From NCBI GenBank assembly GCA_030604855.1, contig JAUVVC010000008.1:38194-70193 (forward strand): DNA of 32,000 nt, given 5' to 3'. The translations under genes and the position numbers were made by a program. This DNA is from Erysipelotrichaceae bacterium. GTDB lineage: Bacteria; Bacillota_I; Bacilli_A; Erysipelotrichales; Erysipelotrichaceae. The first letter of the stretch is position 1; each line of letters starts with the position of its first letter. Under the pieces are notes generated by a model, which was not told where the DNA came from, did not search any database, and saw nothing but the letters and a program-made list of their open reading frames with translations. Below are positions 15,927 through 30,442 of this stretch, piece by piece.

Positions 15927-16613
15927 ATGACTTGTAATCATCATGCAAAAGAATCCGATAACTGTATCCAATGGGTACCCATCTTCAGCAATCTCTCAGA
16001 AGAAGAAATGCTGGAAGTGGCATACATCACCCATGAGGCACGTTTTGATAAGGGTTCTTTTGTTTATATGGCGGAAGATCCCGGAGGTAAGCTCTATGTT
16101 TTGCATAAAGGTAAAGTCAAGATCTCACGCATCGCTCAGAACGGCAAGGAACAAGTCCTTCGTATTGTAGAACCAGGTGAATTTTTGGGTGAGTTGAATC
16201 TCTTCAGTTCAAACAAGATCATGGACAATGCGGAAGTTCTGGAGCCTACCGTCATGTGTCTGATTGAAGCGGAGCCTTTGAAAGCCTTGATGGCCAAGTA
16301 TCCGTCCATTGCCTTCAAAGTCATGGAAGTTCTTAGCCAACGTTTGAATCAAGCAGAAACTTTGATTGAAAACATCAATCTCTATACTGTTGAGCAACGC
16401 ATCGCTCACCAACTCTTGCATCTTTCTGAAGGTAAACGGTCGATCCATCTCAAGATGAGTAAGGGAGATCTGGCTTCGCAAATGGGCATGAGCCAGGAGA
16501 CATTGAGTCGCAAGCTCACAGCCTTTCAGGAAATGGGTTGGATTGATTTGGAAGGTCAGCGTATCATCCACATCAAGAATCGTCTCGCACTCGAACAAAG
16601 CTTATCCGATTGA
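15927..16613 (+). CDS. Crp/Fnr family transcriptional regulator (FNR-like protein, Flp-type)
   Basis: 228 aa with a cNMP-binding-like beta-roll and a C-terminal HTH. The HTH carries the FNR-type E--SR recognition motif (QETLSRKL). There are only three Cys (C3, C13, C111). RBS AGGAG. Confidence 0.88.
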   Translation: MTCNHHAKESDNCIQWVPIFSNLSEEEMLEVAYITHEARFDKGSFVYMAEDPGGKLYVLHKGKVKISRIAQNGKEQVLRIVEPGEFLGELNLFSSNKIMDNAEVLEPTVMCLIEAEPLKALMAKYPSIAFKVMEVLSQRLNQAETLIENINLYTVEQRIAHQLLHLSEGKRSIHLKMSKGDLASQMGMSQETLSRKLTAFQEMGWIDLEGQRIIHIKNRLALEQSLSD

Positions 16614-16635
16614 CAAGCAGAAATGCTTGTTTTTA
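16613..16635 (+). terminator. rho-independent terminator after the crp/fnr gene
   Basis: ACAAGCA-GAAA-TGCTTGT followed by TTTTTA. It overlaps the TGA stop. Confidence 0.75.
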
Positions 16636-16750
16636 TATGGAAGTGAAAAATCTTTGCGTATCAATTAGTGAGTGAATACCAACAGAAAGTTGATGTAAAC
16701 AACATAGAAGTAAGCTAAACTTAAGATGTTCAAATTAGGAGATGTCAACG

Positions 16751-17470
16751 ATGCGTCAAAAAGTTCGTAAGTCATTCCTCTATCTCTCCGCACTCCTCTT
16801 TCCCGTAACACTTAATTATTTTTCACCTTATGTCTCAATCGACGGGGCTTTTTTGGGTATTGTAAGTGGGAGTGTCATTGTGTTTGGTTTACTATTTGTG
16901 TCCGCATTGTTTCTTGGCCGAGCTTGGTGTGCTTGGTTGTGCCCTGCAGGGGGTATCAGTGCGTTTGCACAAACCATCAACGCAAAAACTGTCCCTGTCA
17001 AAAGACTGAAATATGTTCGATATGGAATATTCACGGTTTGGTTAAGCATTTTGATTCTAGGGTTTGTATTGGCTGGAGGCATCAAAGGCGTCAATCCTTT
17101 ACATCTTACAGACACAGGTTTTTCAGTTGATGAACCTATTAAATACCTCATGTATTACTTGGTTGTATTTACCTGGTTAGGTTTATCGTTCTGGTTGGGC
17201 AAACGAGGAGCGTGTCATGCGATCTGTTGGATGTCGCCATTTTTGGTTGCAGGTACTTGGCTTGGCCAAAAGCTTCATCTTCCCCAATTAAAGATCAAGA
17301 GTGACCCTAATTTATGTATAAATTGTAAGCAATGTACGAAAGTCTGCCCAATGAGTATTATGGTTCATGAGGAGCTTATGCAAGGAGTGATTTCCAATAC
17401 AGACTGCATACGCTGTGCGGAATGTGTGGATGCATGTCCAAAGTCGGTGTTAAGATTAAACATCCATTAG
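16751..17470 (+). CDS. membrane-bound 4Fe-4S polyferredoxin (NapH/MauN/YccM-like)
   Basis: TM helices carrying the motif GRAWCAWLCP, plus two C-terminal ferredoxin motifs (CINCKQCTKVCP and CIRCAECVDACP). I place the start at the ATG at 16751 (GGAG about 10 nt upstream); the ATG at 16742 abuts the RBS. Confidence 0.82.
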   Translation: MRQKVRKSFLYLSALLFPVTLNYFSPYVSIDGAFLGIVSGSVIVFGLLFVSALFLGRAWCAWLCPAGGISAFAQTINAKTVPVKRLKYVRYGIFTVWLSILILGFVLAGGIKGVNPLHLTDTGFSVDEPIKYLMYYLVVFTWLGLSFWLGKRGACHAICWMSPFLVAGTWLGQKLHLPQLKIKSDPNLCINCKQCTKVCPMSIMVHEELMQGVISNTDCIRCAECVDACPKSVLRLNIH

Positions 17471-17518: not shown

Positions 17519-17535
17519 AATCATGAGGTATGGAT

Positions 17536-18381
17536 ATGCGCATTCTACAAACATCATTATTGACGCAAAAAGTCAAAGAACTTTTTATTGAAGCCAATGT
17601 GGACATTGGTCCATCTTTAGTTGATCGCTTACGTTCAGCCATGGAAGCAGAAGCTTCTCCAATCGGAAAGAATGTACTCGCTAAGATCATTGCGAACGAT
17701 GAATATGCAAAACGTGAGAAGATTGCGATCTGTCAAGATACAGGGGTTTCTGTTGTGTTCATCGATATCGGTCAAGATGTTCATTTTGATGGGGGCGACT
17801 TCAATGAAGCCATTCATGAAGGTGTACGTCAAGCGTATAAAGAAGGGTATTTGAGAAAATCGGTTGTGTCCGATCCTTTGTTTGATCGCAAGAATACACA
17901 GGACAACACACCTGCGATCATTCATCTTCGTATCATTCCGGGGAATGAAGTGCTTATAAAAGTCATGCCAAAAGGTTTTGGCAGTGAAAACATGAGTACG
18001 CTCAAACTCTTTGCCCCCTCAGTAGGCATCGAAGGGGTCAAACGATTCATCATCGAAACCATAGAAAAAGCAGGTCCCAATGCTTGTCCACCGATGATCG
18101 TTGGGGTGGGAATTGGAGGAACATTTGAGCAAGCCGCTTTGATCGCAAAGCGTGCCGTCTTACGTGGACCTGATCATCCGAACTTAGACCCACGATATTA
18201 TGAGTTGGAGAAAGAACTACTTGATCTAGCCAATCGTTTAGGGATTGGGCCAGCAGGCATGGGTGGTAGCACCACTGTTCTTGCCGTAAACATTGAGCAT
18301 CATCCAACACACATCGCATCGATTCCGGTTGCGATCAATATCAGTTGTCATGCGTCGCGGCATGCGGAAGGCGTTCTCTAA
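17536..18381 (+). CDS. Fe-S type hydro-lyase alpha subunit (class I fumarate hydratase / mesaconase type)
   Basis: CQDTG cluster ligand region, PKGFGSENMS, NACPPMIVGVGIGGT. This is fumarase-like rather than TtdA-like. ATG 17536 sits 7 nt after GAGG, whereas ATG 17530 sits 1 nt after it. Confidence 0.88.
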   Translation: MRILQTSLLTQKVKELFIEANVDIGPSLVDRLRSAMEAEASPIGKNVLAKIIANDEYAKREKIAICQDTGVSVVFIDIGQDVHFDGGDFNEAIHEGVRQAYKEGYLRKSVVSDPLFDRKNTQDNTPAIIHLRIIPGNEVLIKVMPKGFGSENMSTLKLFAPSVGIEGVKRFIIETIEKAGPNACPPMIVGVGIGGTFEQAALIAKRAVLRGPDHPNLDPRYYELEKELLDLANRLGIGPAGMGGSTTVLAVNIEHHPTHIASIPVAINISCHASRHAEGVL

Positions 18382-18932
18382 TGGAAAAGAAAATACAATT
18401 ACCACTGGATGAGGAAACCATTCTAAGTTTGCATGCAGGGGATACGGTATTATTATCAGGAACGTTGATTACAGGCAGAGATGCGGCGCATCTACGCTTG
18501 ATTCAAACACTTGAAAAGGGTGAGGACTTACCTATTGAACTCAAGGGTGAAGTCATCTATTATGTTGGACCTGCACCTGCAAGTCCTAATCATTTTGTTG
18601 GTTCTGCAGGACCGACATCCAGTTATCGCATGGATCCATTCACACCGACTTTGTTGGATGTTGGTCTAAAAGGTATTATCGGCAAAGGCGATCGTAGTCA
18701 ACGTGTCATCGATGCTTTAGTTCGCAATAAAGCAGTTTATTTTGCGGCAATCGGTGGTTTAGGAGCGTTGATTGCTCAAACCATTACTAAAAGTGAAGTC
18801 TTAGCGTATGCAGATTTAGGTACAGAGGCTATACATCGTTTCTGGATTGAAGATTTTCCTGTTGTCGTAGCCATTGATGCTTATGGAAACAACCTCTATC
18901 AGATCGAACAAGCCAAGTATCGTAAGGAGTAA
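18381..18932 (+). CDS. Fe-S type hydro-lyase beta subunit (class I fumarate hydratase / mesaconase type)
   Basis: 183 aa with GTLITGRDAAH...YYVGPAP...GPTSSYRMD...IGKG. TAATG overlap with the alpha subunit stop. Confidence 0.88.
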   Translation: MEKKIQLPLDEETILSLHAGDTVLLSGTLITGRDAAHLRLIQTLEKGEDLPIELKGEVIYYVGPAPASPNHFVGSAGPTSSYRMDPFTPTLLDVGLKGIIGKGDRSQRVIDALVRNKAVYFAAIGGLGALIAQTITKSEVLAYADLGTEAIHRFWIEDFPVVVAIDAYGNNLYQIEQAKYRKE

Positions 18933-18933
18933 A

Positions 18934-20094
18934 ATGTCAGATATCTATCAAAAAGCGCTTGAAGCGCATGCCTTATGGAAAGGTAAGTTACGTATCGAAG
19001 TCAATGCGCCAGTCAGTAATCGTGAAGAACTCAGCATCGCGTATACGCCAGGTGTCGCAGAGCCCTGTCGTGCGATTCATAAAGATCCGAGTAAAGTATA
19101 TGACTATACCTGGGTGGGCAATACGGTTGCGGTCATCACCGATGGGACTGCTGTTTTAGGTTTGGGCGATATTGGACCAAAGGCAAGTCTTCCCGTCATG
19201 GAAGGTAAATGTGCCCTGTTTAAGGCATTTGCTGGGATTGATGCGATCCCCATTGCATTGGATACAAAAGATCCCGATGAGCTCATCCAAATCATTAAAG
19301 CCTTAGCTCCGAGTTTTGGTGGTATCAATCTTGAAGATATTTCTGCACCCCGTTGTGTTCAGATTGAACGAGCGCTCAAAGATCAATTGGATATCCCTGT
19401 CTTTCATGATGACCAACATGGGACAGCCATTGTCGTATCAGCCGCATTGATCAATGCGTTGAAGTTGGTGAATAAAGAGATGTCTTCAATCAAACTTGTC
19501 GTGAGTGGAGCGGGAGCTGCAGGCAGTGCGATACTGTTCATGCTTAGAAATTTGGGTGTAAAAAATATCTTCGCATTTCGTAAAGAAGGCATTATCCTAA
19601 AGGATGATAAACATGACTTTTTAACGAAGGAACTGGCGGAATTCACCAATCCTGAACAAGCAGACATGAGCTTAGCGGAAGCTCTGGTTGGGGCAGATGT
19701 CTTTATCGGTGTTTCAGCACCACGTTTACTCAATTCAGATATGGTGAAGTCGATGAATAAAGATGCGATCATCTTTGCCTTGGCCAATCCTGAGCCTGAA
19801 ATTGATTATCATATCGCAAAAGAAGCGGGTGCCAGGGTTGTGGCAACAGGTCGCTCAGACTATCCCAATCAGATAAACAATGTGCTTGTTTTCCCAGGCA
19901 TCTTCAAAGGAGCCTTAGGTAGTCGAGCTAAACAAATAACTGAGGATATGAAAATCCGTGCAGCAGAAGCCATCGCTTCATTAGTCTCAGTCGAAGAATT
20001 ATCCGATGAATACATCATCCCTTCAGTATTCGATGCACGTGTAGCGGAGGCCGTATCGAAAGCGGTTGAAGAAGAGTCTCTGAAAGCGCTTTAA
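18934..20094 (+). CDS. NAD(P)-dependent malic enzyme (short form)
   Basis: 386 aa with LSIAYTPGVAEPC, VITDGTAVLGLGDIG, GINLEDISAP and the Rossmann motif VVSGAGAAG. RBS AAGGAG. The start is 1 nt after the beta subunit stop. Confidence 0.9.
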   Translation: MSDIYQKALEAHALWKGKLRIEVNAPVSNREELSIAYTPGVAEPCRAIHKDPSKVYDYTWVGNTVAVITDGTAVLGLGDIGPKASLPVMEGKCALFKAFAGIDAIPIALDTKDPDELIQIIKALAPSFGGINLEDISAPRCVQIERALKDQLDIPVFHDDQHGTAIVVSAALINALKLVNKEMSSIKLVVSGAGAAGSAILFMLRNLGVKNIFAFRKEGIILKDDKHDFLTKELAEFTNPEQADMSLAEALVGADVFIGVSAPRLLNSDMVKSMNKDAIIFALANPEPEIDYHIAKEAGARVVATGRSDYPNQINNVLVFPGIFKGALGSRAKQITEDMKIRAAEAIASLVSVEELSDEYIIPSVFDARVAEAVSKAVEEESLKAL

Positions 20095-20187
20095 TTTATT
20101 TACATAATAGTGTAGACTAGAACTATAGAACCACTTATCCATGCCAACCGAATGTATTCATATGTTTAAAAAGTAATGATGTACAAT

Positions 20188-20215
20188 AAGATGTCCTTTT
20201 AGGGCATCTTTTTTA
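20188..20215 (+). terminator. terminator-like hairpin immediately upstream of the glutamate mutase operon RBS
   Basis: AAGATGTCC-TTTTA-GGGCATCTT forms 9 bp including one G-U, followed by TTTT. The T-tract abuts the AAAGGAG RBS of the gene starting at 20226. Confidence 0.6.
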
Positions 20216-20225
20216 AAGGAGTCCA

Positions 20226-21146
20226 ATGTCACTTAATATCGATCAATTTCGTTATGCCACTTACTTTGCCCCGAGAGGTAAAAAACGCATGCAAAGCTTG
20301 GGTAACCAAGTCAGTCAACGTTATCTCTTACCAACCGATAAACTCATTGGTGTGATTGGGGATGCGGGGAGTGGGAAGTCCTTGTTTATCAAAGGGATGT
20401 TTCCAGGCTTGGAGTTGACCAATGATGATGATGGCATCAACACCCGTCCCTGTCCTTTGATGCGGGACTATGGACGCTCGCGATTTACCGCACATTCGTA
20501 TCACTTGGATGCACGCTTTGAATTGGCATTTCACCAAGTCTATGAATTGGTGGAAGCGATTCAAGCGGCGTTGAAAGACAACTCACGCATCATTGTCGAA
20601 CACTTCGATGCGCTGTACGACAATTTGCATCAAAACGCTAATCTCTTGATTGGTATTGGTGAGGAGATCATCATCGCACGTCCTACCTTGTTTGGACCAG
20701 AACCCGATGAGTTGAAGAATGTGGTTTTTCGAACCATTCAATATCGAAGAATGGCGCATACGGCGGAAGATTGTCTGGTCCATGTATTGGAAGAAGAATA
20801 CCACATCAAAATTGATGTCCACGGGGATGTCAAACACGGATTCATTCTTGGCTTCAATAAGAAGCCTCGTGTCTCGCTAAAACAACTCGAGAAGAAAGTG
20901 CGATCTTTGTTGGATCAACATCTACCGGTGACGTATCGGGACTTTGAACATATCCAGATCGGACCCAACATCACACAACACTGTACGGGTCCAAGAACAC
21001 ATGTTAAAAATACCGATCAAGTGGAGCATTTCAGAATTCTAGATCAATGGATCTATGATGAGAATCTTAAGGTCTATCAACTGATTGGTTTGGTTTCTAA
21101 AGAAGTTGTGCATGATATCCATAAAATCAATCAATATGCGGAATAA
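20226..21146 (+). CDS. uncharacterised P-loop NTPase-like protein
   Basis: 306 aa with a Walker A motif in LIGVIGDAGSGKSLF and a possible Walker B in RIIVEHFD. There is no ABC signature and I recognise no family. It is the first gene of the glm operon, with a strong RBS. Confidence 0.65.
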   Translation: MSLNIDQFRYATYFAPRGKKRMQSLGNQVSQRYLLPTDKLIGVIGDAGSGKSLFIKGMFPGLELTNDDDGINTRPCPLMRDYGRSRFTAHSYHLDARFELAFHQVYELVEAIQAALKDNSRIIVEHFDALYDNLHQNANLLIGIGEEIIIARPTLFGPEPDELKNVVFRTIQYRRMAHTAEDCLVHVLEEEYHIKIDVHGDVKHGFILGFNKKPRVSLKQLEKKVRSLLDQHLPVTYRDFEHIQIGPNITQHCTGPRTHVKNTDQVEHFRILDQWIYDENLKVYQLIGLVSKEVVHDIHKINQYAE

Positions 21147-21155
21147 GGAGCAAAT

Positions 21156-21563
21156 ATGGAAACAGTCGTAATCGGAGTCATTGGAGCGGATGTTCATGCG
21201 GTAGGCAATCGCATCATTGAATATGCTTTGAAGCAAGCGGGTTTCAATGTCGTCAATCTGGGGGTCATGGTCAGCCAGCAGGAATTTTTGGATGCGGTCA
21301 TAGAGACCAATGCCAAAGCGGTTATCGTCTCAAGCCTCTATGGCCATGGGGAACTGGATTGTCGTGGCATGGGAGATCGTTTCATTGAAGCGGGTTATGG
21401 TCATGTCTTGTTGTATATTGGGGGGAATCTTGTCATTGGCAAGACCGATTTCAGTGAAGTGGAAGTCAAGTTCAAAGCCATGGGTTTTCATCGAGTCTTC
21501 CCTCCGAACAGTGATATCAATGAAGGCATTGAACGTCTCAAAGAGGACTTATTGAAATCATGA
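21156..21563 (+). CDS. glmS: glutamate mutase (methylaspartate mutase) sigma/S subunit, B12-binding
   Basis: 135 aa. The cobalamin-binding DxHxxG motif is present ([12 protein letters not shown]), and size and sequence match clostridial MutS/GlmS. RBS AAGGAG. Confidence 0.92.
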
Positions 21564-22909
21564 AACGTTATTGCTTAATGGATGTGGGTTCAACCTTCAC
21601 CAAAGGATGCTGGGTGGATACCGATCATGTTGGTGTATTGGCTTGGGCAAGCGCCCCAACAACCGCATCCAGTGATATCAATGAAGGCATACAAAATGTC
21701 TTGAATAAATTAAAAACAATTTATCCGGATTTCAACTATGAAAGCATGCGCTTGTGCAGTTCCGCTAAAGGCGGCTTGCGCATGGTCGCAATTGGATTGG
21801 TTGAAGATCTGACCCTCAAGGCAGCACGCATGGCGTGTGCCAATGCGGGAGCGAAACTTGTGGGTGCTTACAGTCATAAAATCAATCTTCAAGAGTTGAA
21901 AGAAATTGAACATTTAAAGCCGGATATCATTCTCTTAAGTGGGGGCACCGATGGAGGCAATGAGGAAGTCGTACTCCATAACGCCAAACAACTTGCCAAA
22001 TTGAACACAGCTTTACCGATTCTTTATGCGGGGAATAAGAGTTGTCAGGATGAAATACAACAAATTTTAAATGAAGCCAAACATGATGTTCGCATCAGTG
22101 CGAACGTCATGCCTACTTATGGTGTCCTTAATGTCGAATCAGCACGAGATCAGATCCGTGCCTGTTTCCTTGAACAGATCATTGAAGCCAAAGGCTTAAG
22201 TGCTTTAAGCACAATTGTACAAGACATCATCATGCCGACTCCGGCCAGTGTCTTGGATGCCTTAAGTTTATTGGCGTATGGGACAAAAGATGAAAAGGGC
22301 TTAGGAGATCTGATGGCGGTGGATGTCGGTGGCGCAACCACGGATGTGTACTCACTAACGAGCAATCAAGCAGCACCTTCGGGTGTACAGATCAAAGGTT
22401 TGATCGAACCTTTGGCGAAACGTTCGGTTGAAGGTGATCTAGGATTGCGTATCTCTGCGAAACATGTCTTGGACTTGGATTCAGAACTTCATGAAAATGA
22501 GGACTTGTGTCGCTATGTCGATCGAATTACCCAGGAAATACATGGGACAAGCAATTCAAGTTTCGATATACGACTTGCCTCAAGCTGCGTCAAGATCGCA
22601 AGCCGTCGACATGCGGGTCGCTTGGAACAAATCTATACCCCGATGGGTTTGGAAACCATTCAATATGGGAAGGATTTAAGAACTGTGAAGACTTTGATCG
22701 GCATTGGGGGACCGATTGTCTATGCGGATGAGCCCAGTCTAATACTGAGTCAAGTCAAACAGACAGAAGCGGATATTTTATTGCCTCAGTCTTTGGAATT
22801 TATTTTGGATAAACAGTATGTCTTGAGTTGTTTGGGTTTGTTGGCAAAGACAGATCCAGAATGGACACTTAAAACAATGAAACATCATTTGGAGAAAATA
22901 AATGGCTAA
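21560..22909 (+). CDS. glmL: glutamate mutase accessory protein GlmL/MutL (ASKHA-type putative reactivase)
   Basis: 449 aa, positioned between the S and E subunits as in Clostridium. Motifs MDVGSTFTK and [10 protein letters not shown] resemble actin-like ATPase phosphate motifs. ATGA overlap. Confidence 0.85.
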
Positions 22910-24341
22910 AATTGCATTGGAAGTATTTCTGGCAGAACGCGCTGAGGTTTTGAAAGCCTGGCCGACAGGGAAAGATGTTCATCTCGAAGAAGCGATTGAA
23001 TATCAAAAGAGCATTCCGGATTCAAAGCGTTTCTCAAGTGTTCTTAAAAAAGCAGATCATGAACGTGAGACCTTGATTCAACCACGTGCAGGCGTAGCTT
23101 TACCTCAGGAACACCTCGCACTACTCAAACATCTACAAGATGAAGGAAAAGCGGATTTGTTGCCGACGACGATTGATAGCTATACGCGTCACAATCGTTA
23201 TGTGGAAGCTCAGGTGGGGATTGATGAAAGCATCAAAACCGGAAAATCTTTATTGAACGGGTTTCCAGCCGTCAATCATGGCGTTGCCTTATGTCGGTCT
23301 TTGAATGACGGACTGAAGGTTCCCCTTCAAGTACGACATGGGACACCCGATGCGCGCTTGTTGGCAGAGATCACATTGGCAGGCGGTTTCACTTCTTATG
23401 AAGGGGGCGGCATCTCCTATAACATACCTTACGGGAAGAACTATTCCTTAGAAAAAACGATACGCGATTGGCAATACGTGGATCGCTTGGTCGGTTACTA
23501 CGAGGAACAAGGCATTCGTATCAATCGTGAGCCTTTTGGACCTTTGACCGGAACCTTGGTTCCACCTTGCATCTCACACAGCGTTGCGATCTTGGAAGCT
23601 CTCTTAGCGGCTGAACAAGGTTGTAAGTGCATCACCGTCGGTTATGGACAATGTGGCAATCAGGCTCAAGACATTGCGGCGATCCGTTCACTTAAGCTTT
23701 TAACGAAAGAATATTTAGATCGCTTTGGGTACAACGATGTGCAAGTCACCACCGTCTTTCATCAATGGATGGGAGGCTTTCCACAGGATGAGGCTCAAGC
23801 CTATGGCGTCATTGCCTGGGGAGCCGCAACAGCGGTGCTAGCTGGGGCGACCAAAGTCATCGTCAAGTCACCGCATGAAGCTTTTGGGGTGCCGACCGCT
23901 GAGGCCAATGCGAATGGGCTAAAGACGACAAAACAGTTGACCCAAATGCTCAAGGACCAAAACAATGTCGACAGTCCTTTGATTCAAGAGGAAATGCGCT
24001 TGATCGGTGAAGAGACCCATTCCATATTGGAAGCTGTACTCAAGCTGGGTGAGAATGACTTTGCCTTGAGTGCGATCCGTGGCTTTGAGGCAGGCTTGAT
24101 AGATGTGCCCTTTGCGCCGGCGCAATGCAATGCGAATCAAGTATTGCCGGCCCGTGATCATCACGGTGCGGTCCGAATCTATGAGTTCGGTTATCTTCCA
24201 TTCAGTGAAGAACTTAAGAATGTTCATCGCGATAAACTGGATGAACGTGCGCAAGCAGAAGGTAGAGATGTGAGTTTTCAGATGGTGATCGATGATATTT
24301 ACGCTGTAAGCAAAGGACGCTTGGTAGGGAGACCGCGATAA
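22902..24341 (+). CDS. glmE: glutamate mutase (methylaspartate mutase) epsilon/E subunit
   Basis: 479 aa. Size, position and TIM-barrel-like sequence (IQPRAGV..., [21 protein letters not shown]) match GlmE/MutE. Confidence 0.9.
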
Positions 24342-25597
24342 TGAAAATACTGGATGTCGTAACGAGTTGTGGAAAAACTGGATTTTTCTTTGATGATCAA
24401 AAGGCCATTAAGAAACATGCGAAAGCCGATGGAAATTTCTATGTGGGCGAACCTGTCACTGCAGGTTTCAATCATGTGCGGCAAGCGGGGGAATCCCTGT
24501 CCATCCAATTGATCTTGGAAGATGGGCAGATCGCCTTAGGCGATTGTGTGGCGGTTCAATACAGTGGTTGTGGGGGACGTGATCCTTTGTTTATCGCGAA
24601 GGATTTTGAACCGATCGTTCATGAGCGCATTAAAGATTTATTATTAAATGAAGAGTTGGACTCGTTTAAACGTTTGGCTGAGAAATACGATCATCTGCAT
24701 ATTGATGGCAAACGGATCCATACGGCATTACGTTATGGTTTAACGCAAGCTTTGTTGGATGCGGTCGCAAAAGCTCAGCATTTACAAATGGCTGAGGTTG
24801 TGGCGAAAGAATATGGAACGACCGTGAGTACAGAGATGATTCCTATTTTTAGTCAAAGTGGGGATGCCCGGTATGACAATGCGGATAAGATGATCTTGAA
24901 AGAGACATCGGTATTGCCACACGGCTTGTTCAATCATGTGGAAGATAAAGTCGGCTTCAAAGGGGAGAAACTCTTGGCTTATGTCCAATGGTTGCGAAAT
25001 CGCATCGATACCCATAAGCAGAATCCTGAGTATCAGCCTGCGATTCATTTAGATCTTTATGGAACGATGGGTTTGATTTTTGAAGAGGATTTTGAGGCGA
25101 TGGTGGAATATTTCAAAACCTTGCGTGAGGCAAGTGGCTCGTATCGTTTGCGTTTGGAAGGTCCTGTCGACTACGATGATCAAGAGAAGACCATGAATGG
25201 TTTGACCATTTTGACGCGATTGATTGATGAGGCTGATTTGGACATTCAAATCGTCGCGGATGAATGGTGCAACACCCTTGAAGACATCAAGCGCTTTGCG
25301 GATGAGAAAGCCGGACACATGATCCAAATCAAAACACCGGACTTAGGTGGGATTCAGAATGTCATCGAAGCGGTACTCTATTGCAAAGACAAGGGTGTTG
25401 GGGCATACCAAGGGGGCAGCTGTAATGAGTCCGATGTGAGTGCCAAGGCTTGTGTACACTGTGCGATGGCCACGCAACCTTGTCAGATTCTTGCGAAGCC
25501 AGGCATGGGTGTGGATGAAGGCTTCATGTTGGCGTTCAATGAGATGCAGCGGATCTTAGCGGTACAAGATGCCAAGCAAAGGAGACGACATGGATAA
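24341..25597 (+). CDS. mal: methylaspartate ammonia-lyase (3-methylaspartase)
   Basis: 418 aa enolase-superfamily protein. N-terminus MKILDVV...GFFFDDQ, plus IQIKTPDLGG and YQGGSCNES as in clostridial MAL. TAATG overlap with glmE. Confidence 0.9.
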   Translation: MKILDVVTSCGKTGFFFDDQKAIKKHAKADGNFYVGEPVTAGFNHVRQAGESLSIQLILEDGQIALGDCVAVQYSGCGGRDPLFIAKDFEPIVHERIKDLLLNEELDSFKRLAEKYDHLHIDGKRIHTALRYGLTQALLDAVAKAQHLQMAEVVAKEYGTTVSTEMIPIFSQSGDARYDNADKMILKETSVLPHGLFNHVEDKVGFKGEKLLAYVQWLRNRIDTHKQNPEYQPAIHLDLYGTMGLIFEEDFEAMVEYFKTLREASGSYRLRLEGPVDYDDQEKTMNGLTILTRLIDEADLDIQIVADEWCNTLEDIKRFADEKAGHMIQIKTPDLGGIQNVIEAVLYCKDKGVGAYQGGSCNESDVSAKACVHCAMATQPCQILAKPGMGVDEGFMLAFNEMQRILAVQDAKQRRRHG

Positions 25598-26939
25598 CAT
25601 CAAGGTCTTATCACCGACTGCGATTTTGGGTTATGGCTTTCCAATCAGTAGCTTTGAAGCGGGTATGGCAAAATTACCCGATTGCATCGCAGTGGATGCG
25701 GGTTCGACCGATCCAGGACCTTATTACTTGGGGGCTGGACTGTCATTTACCGACCGTTATGCGGTCAAACGCGATTTAAGCATAATGATTCAAGCGGGTA
25801 TAGAACATCATATTCCTGTCTTGATTGGAAGTGCGGGGGGCAGTGGGGCTCAACCTCATCTTAAGTGGAACCTTGAAATCATCGAAGAAATCATCCAGGA
25901 ACAACACCTCCACATTAAATTAGCAGTCATTTCAGCAGACGTTTCAAAAGAACGTGCCTTGTTTGCTTTAAGTAGAGGGGAACTCAAACCCCTTCATCCC
26001 GCACCCGAGGCAACGGAAGCTGATATTACAGAAGCCAGCCATATCGTAGGTCAGATGGGGGTCGAGCCTTTCATTGAAGCACTTAAGGAAGGTGCGGATG
26101 TGATTCTTGCAGGTCGTTCATATGATCCCAGCATGTTTGCGGCATTGGCGATTCATCGAGGCTTCGATCCAGGAATCGCTTTACACTGTGGAAAGATCCT
26201 GGAATGTGCCGCCATCGCGTCAACACCAGGCAGTGGAAGTGATTGCATGCTTGGGACCATCTATGCGGATCGCTTTGTTTTAGAGACATTGAATCCAGCC
26301 CGTCGCTGTACGACGTTAAGTGTCAGTGCTCATACCTTGTATGAGAAGACCAATCCATACATCCTGCCGGGACCAGGTGGAACCTTAGACCTACATCAAA
26401 CCCAGTTCACCCAACTCAACGACCAACAAGTCGAAGTCAAAGGGACGGTTTTTATGCCAAGTGATCCATATACTGTGAAATTGGAAGCTGCGAAGTGTGT
26501 GGGTTATCGTACGGTAAGCATCGCGGGTGTGCGCGATCCTTTCTTCATCCAAGCTTTGGATGAGATCTTGAACGGAGTCAAACAACGTGTGCATGATAAT
26601 TTCAAAGAACTGGATTATCACTTGAATTTCAAGATTTATGGTAAGAACGGTGTCATGGGGGAATTGGAGCCCATAAGCGAAATACACAGTCATGAATTGG
26701 GCATCGTCATCGATGCGGTTGCGAAGACACAAGACATCGCCAACACCGTCTGTAGTTTCGCCAGAAGCACGATGTTGCATTATGGTTATACCGGACGCAT
26801 TGCAACGGCAGGGAATCTCGCATTTCCATACTCACCAAGTGATGCCAAGATGGGTGAAGTCTATCAATTCTGTCTCTATCACATCATCGATGTGCAAGAT
26901 CCTTTGGAATTATTTCCCATTGAATGGAGGGTTTACTAA
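25590..26939 (+). CDS. AtuA-like (DUF1446) family protein, function unknown
   Basis: 449 aa. SPTAILGYGF...VDAGSTDPGPYYLG...LIGSAGGSG matches the AtuA/DUF1446 pattern as I remember it. The ATG at 25590 follows AAAGGAG and overlaps the mal stop by 8 nt. Confidence 0.75.
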   Translation: MDNIKVLSPTAILGYGFPISSFEAGMAKLPDCIAVDAGSTDPGPYYLGAGLSFTDRYAVKRDLSIMIQAGIEHHIPVLIGSAGGSGAQPHLKWNLEIIEEIIQEQHLHIKLAVISADVSKERALFALSRGELKPLHPAPEATEADITEASHIVGQMGVEPFIEALKEGADVILAGRSYDPSMFAALAIHRGFDPGIALHCGKILECAAIASTPGSGSDCMLGTIYADRFVLETLNPARRCTTLSVSAHTLYEKTNPYILPGPGGTLDLHQTQFTQLNDQQVEVKGTVFMPSDPYTVKLEAAKCVGYRTVSIAGVRDPFFIQALDEILNGVKQRVHDNFKELDYHLNFKIYGKNGVMGELEPISEIHSHELGIVIDAVAKTQDIANTVCSFARSTMLHYGYTGRIATAGNLAFPYSPSDAKMGEVYQFCLYHIIDVQDPLELFPIEWRVY

Positions 26940-27253
26940 TGGTCAAGTTATTGGATTTGGCGAAGGTCATTCGTTCCAAGAATTCTGGACCCTATGAACT
27001 CACTTTGGACATCATCCTTAAGGATGAAGAAAGCTATCGTCTACTCATTGAGAAACAATGCATTACAAAAGATGTGATCGCCAAGCTGTATCGCATTCCT
27101 GTAGAGGACGTGATCAATGTGATACATTTCGAACCGGCACATGCGATCAAAGCAACGATCGTACGTCCCATGTGCAGTGGAGATCTCAATGAGACGGATG
27201 TGTATGGGGCTCAACAACACGCTCCACTCTTGCAGTTGGAATTTGATCTCTAA
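26939..27253 (+). CDS. DUF4387 domain protein (partner of AtuA-like proteins)
   Basis: 104 aa. LAKVIRSKNSGPYELTLDIIL...DVYGAQQHAPLL fits the DUF4387 pattern. TAATG overlap with the AtuA-like gene, with GGAGGG as RBS. Confidence 0.72.
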   Translation: MVKLLDLAKVIRSKNSGPYELTLDIILKDEESYRLLIEKQCITKDVIAKLYRIPVEDVINVIHFEPAHAIKATIVRPMCSGDLNETDVYGAQQHAPLLQLEFDL

Positions 27254-27276
27254 GTAGACCGCAAGGTCTACTTTTT
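27254..27276 (+). terminator. rho-independent terminator of the glm operon
   Basis: GTAGACC-GCAA-GGTCTAC followed by TTTTT, directly after the TAA stop. Confidence 0.85.
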
Positions 27277-29249: not shown

Positions 29250-29271
29250 CGGTCTTCTGATCGCTTTTTTT
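29248..29271 (+). terminator. rho-independent terminator after the HAD gene
   Basis: AGCGGTC-TTCT-GATCGCT forms 7 bp including one G-U, followed by TTTTTTT. Confidence 0.6.
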
Positions 29272-29311
29272 GATGGTTTTTCATACAATGGATGTAACAA
29301 ATGGAGGTCTT

Positions 29312-30442
29312 ATGATCAAGAATGAATCCTTGTATTTAGCCGGTCCGTTGGTCTTTTATGTGAATGGTATTGAGATGTGGCAGGCATGGCGTAGAGAAGC
29401 ACAGTACCATGGTTTCAATGTCGCTTTACCGAATGATAATGTCCCTGAAGCAGAACCTGGGAATAAGCGTCAATTGAGTGCTTCGATCTTTAAGAATTGT
29501 CGCGATTCCATCAATCAAACCACGACGATAATTGCCAACCTTGAAACCTATCGGGGCATGGTTCCCGATGGGGGTACGGTTTTTGAAGTGGGCATGGCGT
29601 ATGGTAAGGGGGCCAAATGTTATGGCTACACCAAAGATAAGCGACCTGAGGGTCAAAAGTATGGGTATGCGAAGTTGGATAATGAAGGGATTTGGGATTT
29701 GGAAGGTCGACCCTTGCCTTACTATCAACTGCCCTTTGGTCCCTGTTTGGTAGGTTCGAGCAAGATTGTTGAGGGTTCCTTCAGTGATGCGCTGGCGGTA
29801 TTCAAAGCAGACTTGGAAGAGGAGTCAAAGCTTAAGGCCAATCGCAACATCGAACTTAAGACTAAACCCGCAGAGCGTACCTTGTTTGCCAAAGATAAAC
29901 CTTTGGTCTATCTTTCAACTTTTGAGCGCTATGACAAAGATGCAGATCAGAAATTGAATGCGATGAAAGCAATCTTAAATCAATATGGCTTCCAAGGCAT
30001 CAGTCCATTGGACGATGCCCCGGGCGTTCAACGCATAGAGTCCGAGGATATGTATGAGCTTGCTTACAATACCTTTGATCACTATCAACAACATGTCCGT
30101 AATTGCGACATAATCCTTGCCAATCTCAATCCATATCATGGTTATGAACCCAATGAGGATGTGTCCTTTGAATGTGGTATGGCGTTCCAATTGGGCAAGA
30201 AACTCTTTGGATATGTGGATGATCTTAGACCCATGGTTGAATTGATTCCAAATGGAGGCGAAGCCAATGGCTGTCGTGATCTGAATGGGATGAATGTGGA
30301 AGATTTTGAGAATCCTTTGAATCTTATGTTTGGTGCTTCGTTCACCTTGTTTACGGGGGCATTTGAAACAGTGGTCAAGCAGATGGCGGATGCAATGCTT
30401 GATTTCAAGCTTGCGGATGATTTGGTTCCACCTGTTCTATGA
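29312..30442 (+). CDS. tandem-domain nucleoside 2-deoxyribosyltransferase-like protein
   Basis: 376 aa with two NDT/Rcl-like modules. Module 1 has LYLAGPLVF and DGGTVFEVGMAYGKG. Module 2 has EDVSFECGMAFQLGKK and the C-terminal VEDFENPLNLMF motif. ATG 29312 lies 4 nt after GGAGG. Confidence 0.75.
   Translation: MIKNESLYLAGPLVFYVNGIEMWQAWRREAQYHGFNVALPNDNVPEAEPGNKRQLSASIFKNCRDSINQTTTIIANLETYRGMVPDGGTVFEVGMAYGKGAKCYGYTKDKRPEGQKYGYAKLDNEGIWDLEGRPLPYYQLPFGPCLVGSSKIVEGSFSDALAVFKADLEEESKLKANRNIELKTKPAERTLFAKDKPLVYLSTFERYDKDADQKLNAMKAILNQYGFQGISPLDDAPGVQRIESEDMYELAYNTFDHYQQHVRNCDIILANLNPYHGYEPNEDVSFECGMAFQLGKKLFGYVDDLRPMVELIPNGGEANGCRDLNGMNVEDFENPLNLMFGASFTLFTGAFETVVKQMADAMLDFKLADDLVPPVL

Follow-up and report, generated by a model that had tools for sequence, protein, structure and literature searches.

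The gene locus

A stretch of 32,000 nucleotides (nt) of an Erysipelotrichaceae bacterium genome (GenBank assembly GCA_030604855.1, contig JAUVVC010000008.1, positions 38,194 to 70,193 of the forward strand), called the window below and numbered from its first letter, was analyzed for the function of two adjoining genes which lie directly behind mal, the gene of 3-methylaspartate ammonia-lyase. A preliminary description of the sequence had placed their products in the AtuA (DUF1446) and DUF4387 families and had expected them to consume mesaconate. Here we report that the two open reading frames (ORFs) very probably code for CmlA and CmlB, the subunits of a citramalate lyase which would split (S)-citramalate into pyruvate and acetate, with no need of coenzyme A (CoA) or of an acyl carrier protein.

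The start codon of cmlA (ATG, 25590-25592) overlaps the stop codon of mal (TAA, 25595-25597) within ATGGATAA, and an AGGAG motif stands 5 nt 5′ of this ATG. An in-frame ATG at 25569 was considered as an alternative start and rejected: no ribosome-binding site precedes it, and it would lengthen the protein by 7 residues that are absent from the homologues, whose start corresponds to the ATG at 25590. The stop codon of cmlA (TAA, 26937-26939) shares 1 nt with the start codon of cmlB (ATG, 26939-26941) in the motif TAATG, with GGAGG upstream of the cmlB start, and cmlB ends at 27253. Both overlaps had been noticed before and are confirmed by the coordinates. Together with the terminator-like hairpin that follows, they suggest coupled translation and production of the two subunits in stoichiometric amounts.

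CmlA has 449 amino acids and CmlB 104. The profile search places both proteins in the families named in the preliminary description: CmlA matches PF07287 (AtuA) with 84 bits (E 1.2e-23), above the gathering threshold of 22.8, and CmlB matches PF14330 (DUF4387) with 132 bits against a cutoff of 27, over profile positions 1-98 of 98. The best stretch of PF07287 on CmlA spans residues 95-209 only and, given this partial coverage, CmlA is by its profile match a divergent PF07287 subfamily; precomputed PF07287 matches on CmlA homologues are likewise flagged as 'weak'. No model of NCBIfam release 20 matches CmlA or CmlB. The Fumerase and Fumerase_C domains of Pfam are absent from both proteins and were found instead in the ORFs at 17530-18932.

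Correspondence with the solved citramalate lyase

The chains of the Protein Data Bank (PDB) entries 9ERQ and 9EVF are named 'Citramalate lyase, subunit A (cmlA)' and 'subunit B (cmlB)', and 9EVF, released on 2025-10-08, is entitled 'Citramalate lyase - ADP - pyruvate complex'. A phmmer search of the PDB matched CmlA of the window to 9ERQ_A and 9EVF_A with E 3.2e-158 over residues 4-441 of 449 at 57% identity, and CmlB to 9ERQ_B with E 9.5e-28. The earlier statement that the AtuA and DUF4387 families have no assigned activity is outdated by these orthologous chains.

The AlphaFold model of CmlA, with a predicted local distance difference test (pLDDT) of 87 and a predicted template-modelling score of 0.85, leads to the same enzyme. 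The Foldseek search for the nearest enzymatic fold returned citramalate lyase 9evf_A with a template-modelling (TM) score of 0.94/0.93, a root-mean-square deviation of 2.2 Å and E 6e-63; no other PDB structure was found by Foldseek at E <= 0.001, and the fold therefore has no other PDB representative at the sensitivity of this search. A relationship to the DRE-TIM enzymes through the catalytic domains of homocitrate and citramalate synthases (6ktq, 3ble) was looked at and not counted, as the Foldseek E-values were above 0.03 and the TM scores about 0.15. In an alignment of 13 sequences from Bacillota and E. coli, the E. coli orthologue being one of the 13, 150 columns are invariant. Two glycine-rich loops of CmlA, GSAGGSG (residues 80-86) and PGSGSDC (residues 213-219), are invariant as well.

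The activity itself is taken from the literature. In a 2026 preprint, cmlAB was expressed and used as a direct citramalate lyase which splits citramalate into pyruvate plus acetate, as part of a module termed CoA-independent. An acetyl-CoA auxotroph of E. coli grew there on mesaconate in a Cml-dependent manner through fumarase A (FumA) and Cml, which isotope labelling into acetyl-CoA confirmed, and Acs was upregulated in an evolved strain; Raoultella planticola and the Berg laboratory are named for the enterobacterial CmlAB. The association with methylaspartase is older, since Kronen and Berg pointed out in 2015 that mal is followed downstream by a DUF1446 gene in Enterobacteriaceae and in Dictyoglomus (PMC4682846).

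Homologues of CitC, CitD, CitE, CitF, CitX and CitG were found neither in the window nor in 81 loci (tblastn with the E. coli K-12 Cit proteins as queries, E <= 1e-3), and Pfam detected no cit domains in the window, in agreement with the earlier remark that it holds no citDEF-like citramalate lyase genes. CmlA and CmlB are orthologues of the solved subunits by sequence and by fold, their synteny is conserved, and citDEF is absent from the window. We infer that the orthologue in the window would have the same activity and stereospecificity as the solved enzyme. The locus holds an ordinary orthologue of an enzyme that is already known, if poorly annotated, and the novelty formerly seen in it, a functional handle on a family of unknown function, had already been anticipated, as the enzyme is solved and named and the linkage of DUF1446 to mal was published in 2015 (PMC4682846).

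Conservation of the gene neighbourhood

A scan of one genome per species gave at least 557 relatives of CmlA, and the neighbourhood counts were taken from the best 80 loci. These are 60-95% identical to CmlA of the window and come from Bacillota, Bacteroidota, Flexilinea, a spirochaete and Desulfoluna, the closest being uncultured Erysipelotrichaceae (94-95% identity). The cmlB gene adjoins cmlA in 78 of the 80 loci, mal stands immediately 5′ of cmlA in 55 of the 70 loci having enough upstream sequence, and glmE is present in 36 of the 40 loci with full flanks of 10 kilobases (kb). The median gaps are 15 nt between mal and cmlA and 11 nt between cmlA and cmlB; the gaps are short, and literal overlap is not universal. 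The order mal-cmlA-cmlB recurs across phyla and is therefore more than chance.

In E. coli O157:H7 Sakai the order is glmS-glmL-glmE-mal-ECs_0760-ECs_0759-gltP-like transporter-fumD-cobA, where ECs_0760 is 58% identical to CmlA of the window and ECs_0759 is 45% identical to CmlB. The RefSeq record of this genome (locus L001, 26934-28618) names ECs_0760 '3-methylaspartate ammonia-lyase' and ECs_0759 'acyl-CoA synthetase', names which have no support in the sequences.

Loci without glm and mal genes occur in Desulforamulus and Desulfotomaculum (L025, L028, L037, L042). In Desulforamulus putei (L025, 7057-17879) the dicarboxylate transporter DctPQM of the tripartite ATP-independent periplasmic (TRAP) type stands directly before cmlAB, and a sigma-54 activator, mesAB and phosphoenolpyruvate carboxykinase follow a few kb downstream. 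This arrangement suggests a stand-alone module, independent of glutamate, for the uptake of C5-dicarboxylates and their conversion through citramalate; the occurrence of cmlAB without glm or mal fits an action at the citramalate step and not at the amino-acid steps.

Organization of the cluster

The features of the cluster and of its surroundings are collected in Table 1.

Table 1. Features of the methylaspartate-pathway cluster and neighbouring features in the window
Feature	Position	Strand	Description	Evidence
Crp/Fnr-family regulator gene	15927-16613	+
Terminator-like hairpin	16612-16631		Follows the Crp/Fnr-family regulator gene
NapH-like gene	16742-17470	+	Membrane polyferredoxin
mesA candidate	17530..18381	+	Class I (Fe-S) fumarase-type hydratase alpha subunit, probable mesaconase large subunit	PF05681 Fumerase E 2e-112; NF004885 387 bits
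mesB candidate	18381..18932	+	Hydratase beta subunit	PF05683 Fumerase_C E 2e-57; NF005310 271 bits
Malic enzyme gene	18935..20094	+	Decarboxylating malate dehydrogenase	PF00390 + PF03949
Intergenic gap, 131 nt	20095-20225		Between malic enzyme gene and P-loop gene
P-loop protein gene	20226..21146	+	Conserved, uncharacterised; TsaE-like N-terminal domain and AlaX / tRNA_SAD-like C-terminal domain (predicted)
glmS	21156..21563	+	Glutamate (methylaspartate) mutase B12-binding subunit S	PF02310; NF002612 208 bits
glmL	21560..22909	+	Mutase accessory or reactivating protein	PF13941 MutL E 7e-148; NF040745 535 bits
glmE	22902..24341	+	Glutamate mutase subunit E	PF06368 E 6e-219
mal	24341..25597	+	3-Methylaspartate ammonia-lyase	PF05034 + PF07476; TIGR01502 542 bits
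cmlA	25590..26939	+	Predicted citramalate lyase large subunit, CoA/acyl carrier protein-independent (AtuA / DUF1446 family)	9ERQ_A / 9EVF_A matches; AlphaFold model
cmlB	26939..27253	+	Predicted citramalate lyase small subunit (DUF4387)	PF14330 E 1e-38; 9ERQ_B match
Terminator-like hairpin	27252..27273	+	9-pair stem, 4-nt loop, then TTTGCTT; operon end directly after cmlB stop	Consensus scan
PF05014-like gene	29270-30442	+	390-amino-acid protein, two stretches matching nucleoside 2-deoxyribosyltransferase family PF05014

The match of NF005310 to mesB begins at residue 13 of the longer ORF that was listed, the stop codon of mesA and the start codon of mesB overlap as TAATG at 18379-18383, and the ATG of the malic enzyme gene lies 2 nt past the mesB stop; Fig. 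4 of PMC4682846 shows an SfcA gene in clusters of a comparable kind. The 131-nt gap behind the malic enzyme gene holds an imperfect hairpin followed by a run of T (GATGTCC...GGGCATC TTTTTT), and this hairpin may divide the cluster into two transcription units, one with mesAB and the malic enzyme gene and the other reaching from the P-loop gene through cmlB. The next gene past the hairpin behind cmlB codes for an RpiR regulator on the opposite strand. By their sequences, the genes of this one cluster would encode all four steps of the methylaspartate pathway.

The genes for the Crp/Fnr-family regulator and the NapH-like protein lie immediately upstream of mesA, and a connection with anaerobic regulation, or with the maintenance of the Fe-S cluster of the hydratase, is conceivable. 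The PF05014-like protein encoded farther downstream is unrelated to cmlAB.

The P-loop protein of the cluster

The protein encoded in front of glmS has 306 amino acids and a Walker A motif, GDAGSGKS. Against Pfam it gave sub-threshold matches only, to TsaE and tRNA_SAD, and a sequence search of the PDB found no relative. Its AlphaFold model (pLDDT 86) is matched by Foldseek to TsaE (6n9a_E, 4e-5) and to AlaX (1v7o, 4e-4), from which the protein would be composed of a TsaE-like P-loop ATPase domain and an AlaX-like domain, and invariant His and Cys residues are found in its C-terminal half. The family comprises about 3,100 sequences with inconsistent annotations, such as TsaE, 'alanine-tRNA synthetase second additional domain-containing' and 'lantibiotic ABC transporter'.

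A homologue of this protein occurs in 29 of the 36 full-flank loci that contain glmE, compared with none of the 4 that lack it, and it stands directly 3′ of cmlB in 38 of 72 loci. The cluster of E. coli O157:H7 Sakai has cobA instead and no P-loop homologue; the hypothetical protein ECs_0767 of this strain was tested as a candidate and is not homologous. The co-occurrence suggests that the P-loop protein acts in connection with the B12-dependent mutase and not with Cml, and the protein may serve the methylaspartate pathway as an accessory factor.

Proposed pathway and alternative explanations

In the pathway that we propose, glutamate would be converted to 3-methylaspartate by GlmS and GlmE with the help of GlmL, and 3-methylaspartate to mesaconate by Mal. 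Mesaconate would then be hydrated to (S)-citramalate by MesAB, a hydratase of the class I fumarase type, and CmlAB, in place of a citramalate lyase complex of the CitDEF type, would carry out the last step of the glutamate fermentation, the cleavage of (S)-citramalate to pyruvate and acetate. The mesaconate step being covered by the MesAB candidates, citramalate cleavage is the slot left for CmlAB.

Some observations weigh against this assignment or limit its reach. A search of the accessible literature turned up no primary biochemical paper on CmlAB, the relevant papers being the 2026 preprint and that of Kronen and Berg, and for this reason the activity rests on the names given by the depositors of the PDB entries and on one preprint in which the enzyme was used. 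An identity of 57% leaves the specificity of the orthologue in the window unproven, and the evidence on the conservation of its active site consists of the overall invariant columns. The ADP present in 9EVF hints at a role of the nucleotide beyond the plain description of a lyase. Further, identity within the family declines smoothly from 56% to about 33% with no clear functional boundary; CmlA of the window stands at the top of this range together with the solved enzyme.

The alternative which survives best, and which we still regard as improbable, is a nucleotide-dependent cleavage which is not that of a simple lyase; for example, ATP might activate citramalate and acetyl phosphate be released, or ADP might be an obligatory regulator. 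The complex of the enzyme with ADP and pyruvate in 9EVF and the two invariant glycine-rich loops of CmlA speak for this alternative, as does the general chemistry of the reaction, in which the expulsion of a bare acetate carbanion is hard without activation. The preprint reports however a direct, CoA-independent cleavage to pyruvate and acetate, its text mentions no ATP requirement and does not contain the term 'ADP', and the upregulation of Acs in the evolved strain implies that free acetate is the product of Cml.

That CmlAB consumes mesaconate directly, as a hydratase, an isomerase or an activating enzyme, is the role which the preliminary description had expected, and we consider it very unlikely. 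The position of the pair directly downstream of mal, whose product is mesaconate, would suit such a role, and 21 of the 36 glmE-containing loci with full flanks have no mesA homologue within 10 kb. Against it, candidates for both mesA and mesB of the class I fumarase type (17530-18932) lie in the same cluster of the window, and the known mesaconases are class I fumarases (PMC4682846); the orthologue of known structure bears the name citramalate lyase, and its crystals contained pyruvate, one of the products of the cleavage; and the use of mesaconate in the preprint needed fumarase A in addition to Cml. Of the substrates once considered for the pair, namely mesaconate, citramalate, methylaspartate or a related branched dicarboxylate, citramalate, a C5-dicarboxylate of the methylaspartate pathway, therefore stands and mesaconate falls away.

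The weakest alternative, with hardly any probability left to it, is that the Erysipelotrichaceae orthologue cleaves another 2-hydroxy-dicarboxylate (malate, citrate or methylmalate) while some other enzyme removes citramalate: the moderate identity to the solved enzyme, the continuum within the family and the malic enzyme gene in the cluster would allow it, but the alignment is full-length, the operon position is like that of the enterobacterial genes, the 150 invariant residues are shared by the Bacillota and E. coli sequences, and the window holds no alternative citramalate lyase.

Extent of the family

An exhaustive profile-free search found AtuA/DUF4387 relatives in 2,482 clusters (50% identity) at E <= 1e-3 and in 482 clusters at E <= 1e-30. 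Among the distant relatives of CmlA are apparent fusion proteins of 600-1100 amino acids with 41-48% identity (P0243, P0264, P0276, P0366).

A wider reading which joins these observations, and which we offer as tentative and rather doubtful, is that CmlAB is a mechanistically new C-C lyase in which a bound adenine nucleotide replaces the thioester and acyl carrier protein chemistry of CitDEF; that the approximately 2,500 clusters of relatives, including Pseudomonas AtuA and the large fusion proteins, are lyases for other 2-hydroxy acids; and that the P-loop protein is an unrecognised accessory factor of the pathway.

Value of the assignment

What becomes of (S)-citramalate in E. coli O157:H7 was reported as unknown in 2015, when the citrate lyase, isocitrate lyase and methylisocitrate lyase of this organism were found to have no citramalate lyase activity (PMC4682846). 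CmlAB would close the gap that has been open since then for organisms which have glutamate mutase and methylaspartase and lack citDEF, among them E. coli O157:H7 as well as many Bacillota of the gut and many Bacteroidota. The window is of practical more than conceptual value, as it provides the predicted citramalate lyase of an Erysipelotrichaceae genome beside a complete pathway cluster. The annotation of these genes lags behind, with relatives in at least 557 species genomes, no model in NCBIfam release 20 and unsupported RefSeq names in E. coli O157 Sakai. The enzyme is also of use in metabolic engineering as a CoA-independent route between citramalate on one side and pyruvate and acetate on the other.

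Comparison with known systems

Pseudomonas AtuA, from the acyclic terpene utilisation cluster and the namesake of PF07287, belongs to the same Pfam family as CmlA; the family match is weak and partial and the genomic context is entirely different. To our knowledge no reaction has been demonstrated for AtuA, and nothing can for this reason be transferred from it to CmlA.

The classical citramalate lyase CitDEF of Clostridium tetanomorphum and its relatives, with CitC, CitX and CitG, performs the same net reaction at the same position of the pathway as is proposed for CmlAB, whereas the two systems have no sequence homology and CmlAB is without genes for an acyl carrier protein and for activation. 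CitDEF works with an acyl carrier protein that carries a phosphoribosyl-dephospho-CoA prosthetic group and passes through an acetyl-thioester cycle, and the expulsion of the acetate carbanion is handled by it via the thioester bound to this carrier protein.

The closest system is the enterobacterial CmlAB of 9ERQ and 9EVF, which likewise consists of a large subunit of the AtuA family and a small DUF4387 subunit and has the operon position after glmS-glmL-glmE-mal. The window differs from it in the Bacillota host, in the split MesA and MesB encoded upstream where the enterobacterial cluster has a fused FumD downstream, and in the TsaE/AlaX-like P-loop gene which its cluster carries instead of the cobA of the enterobacterial cluster.

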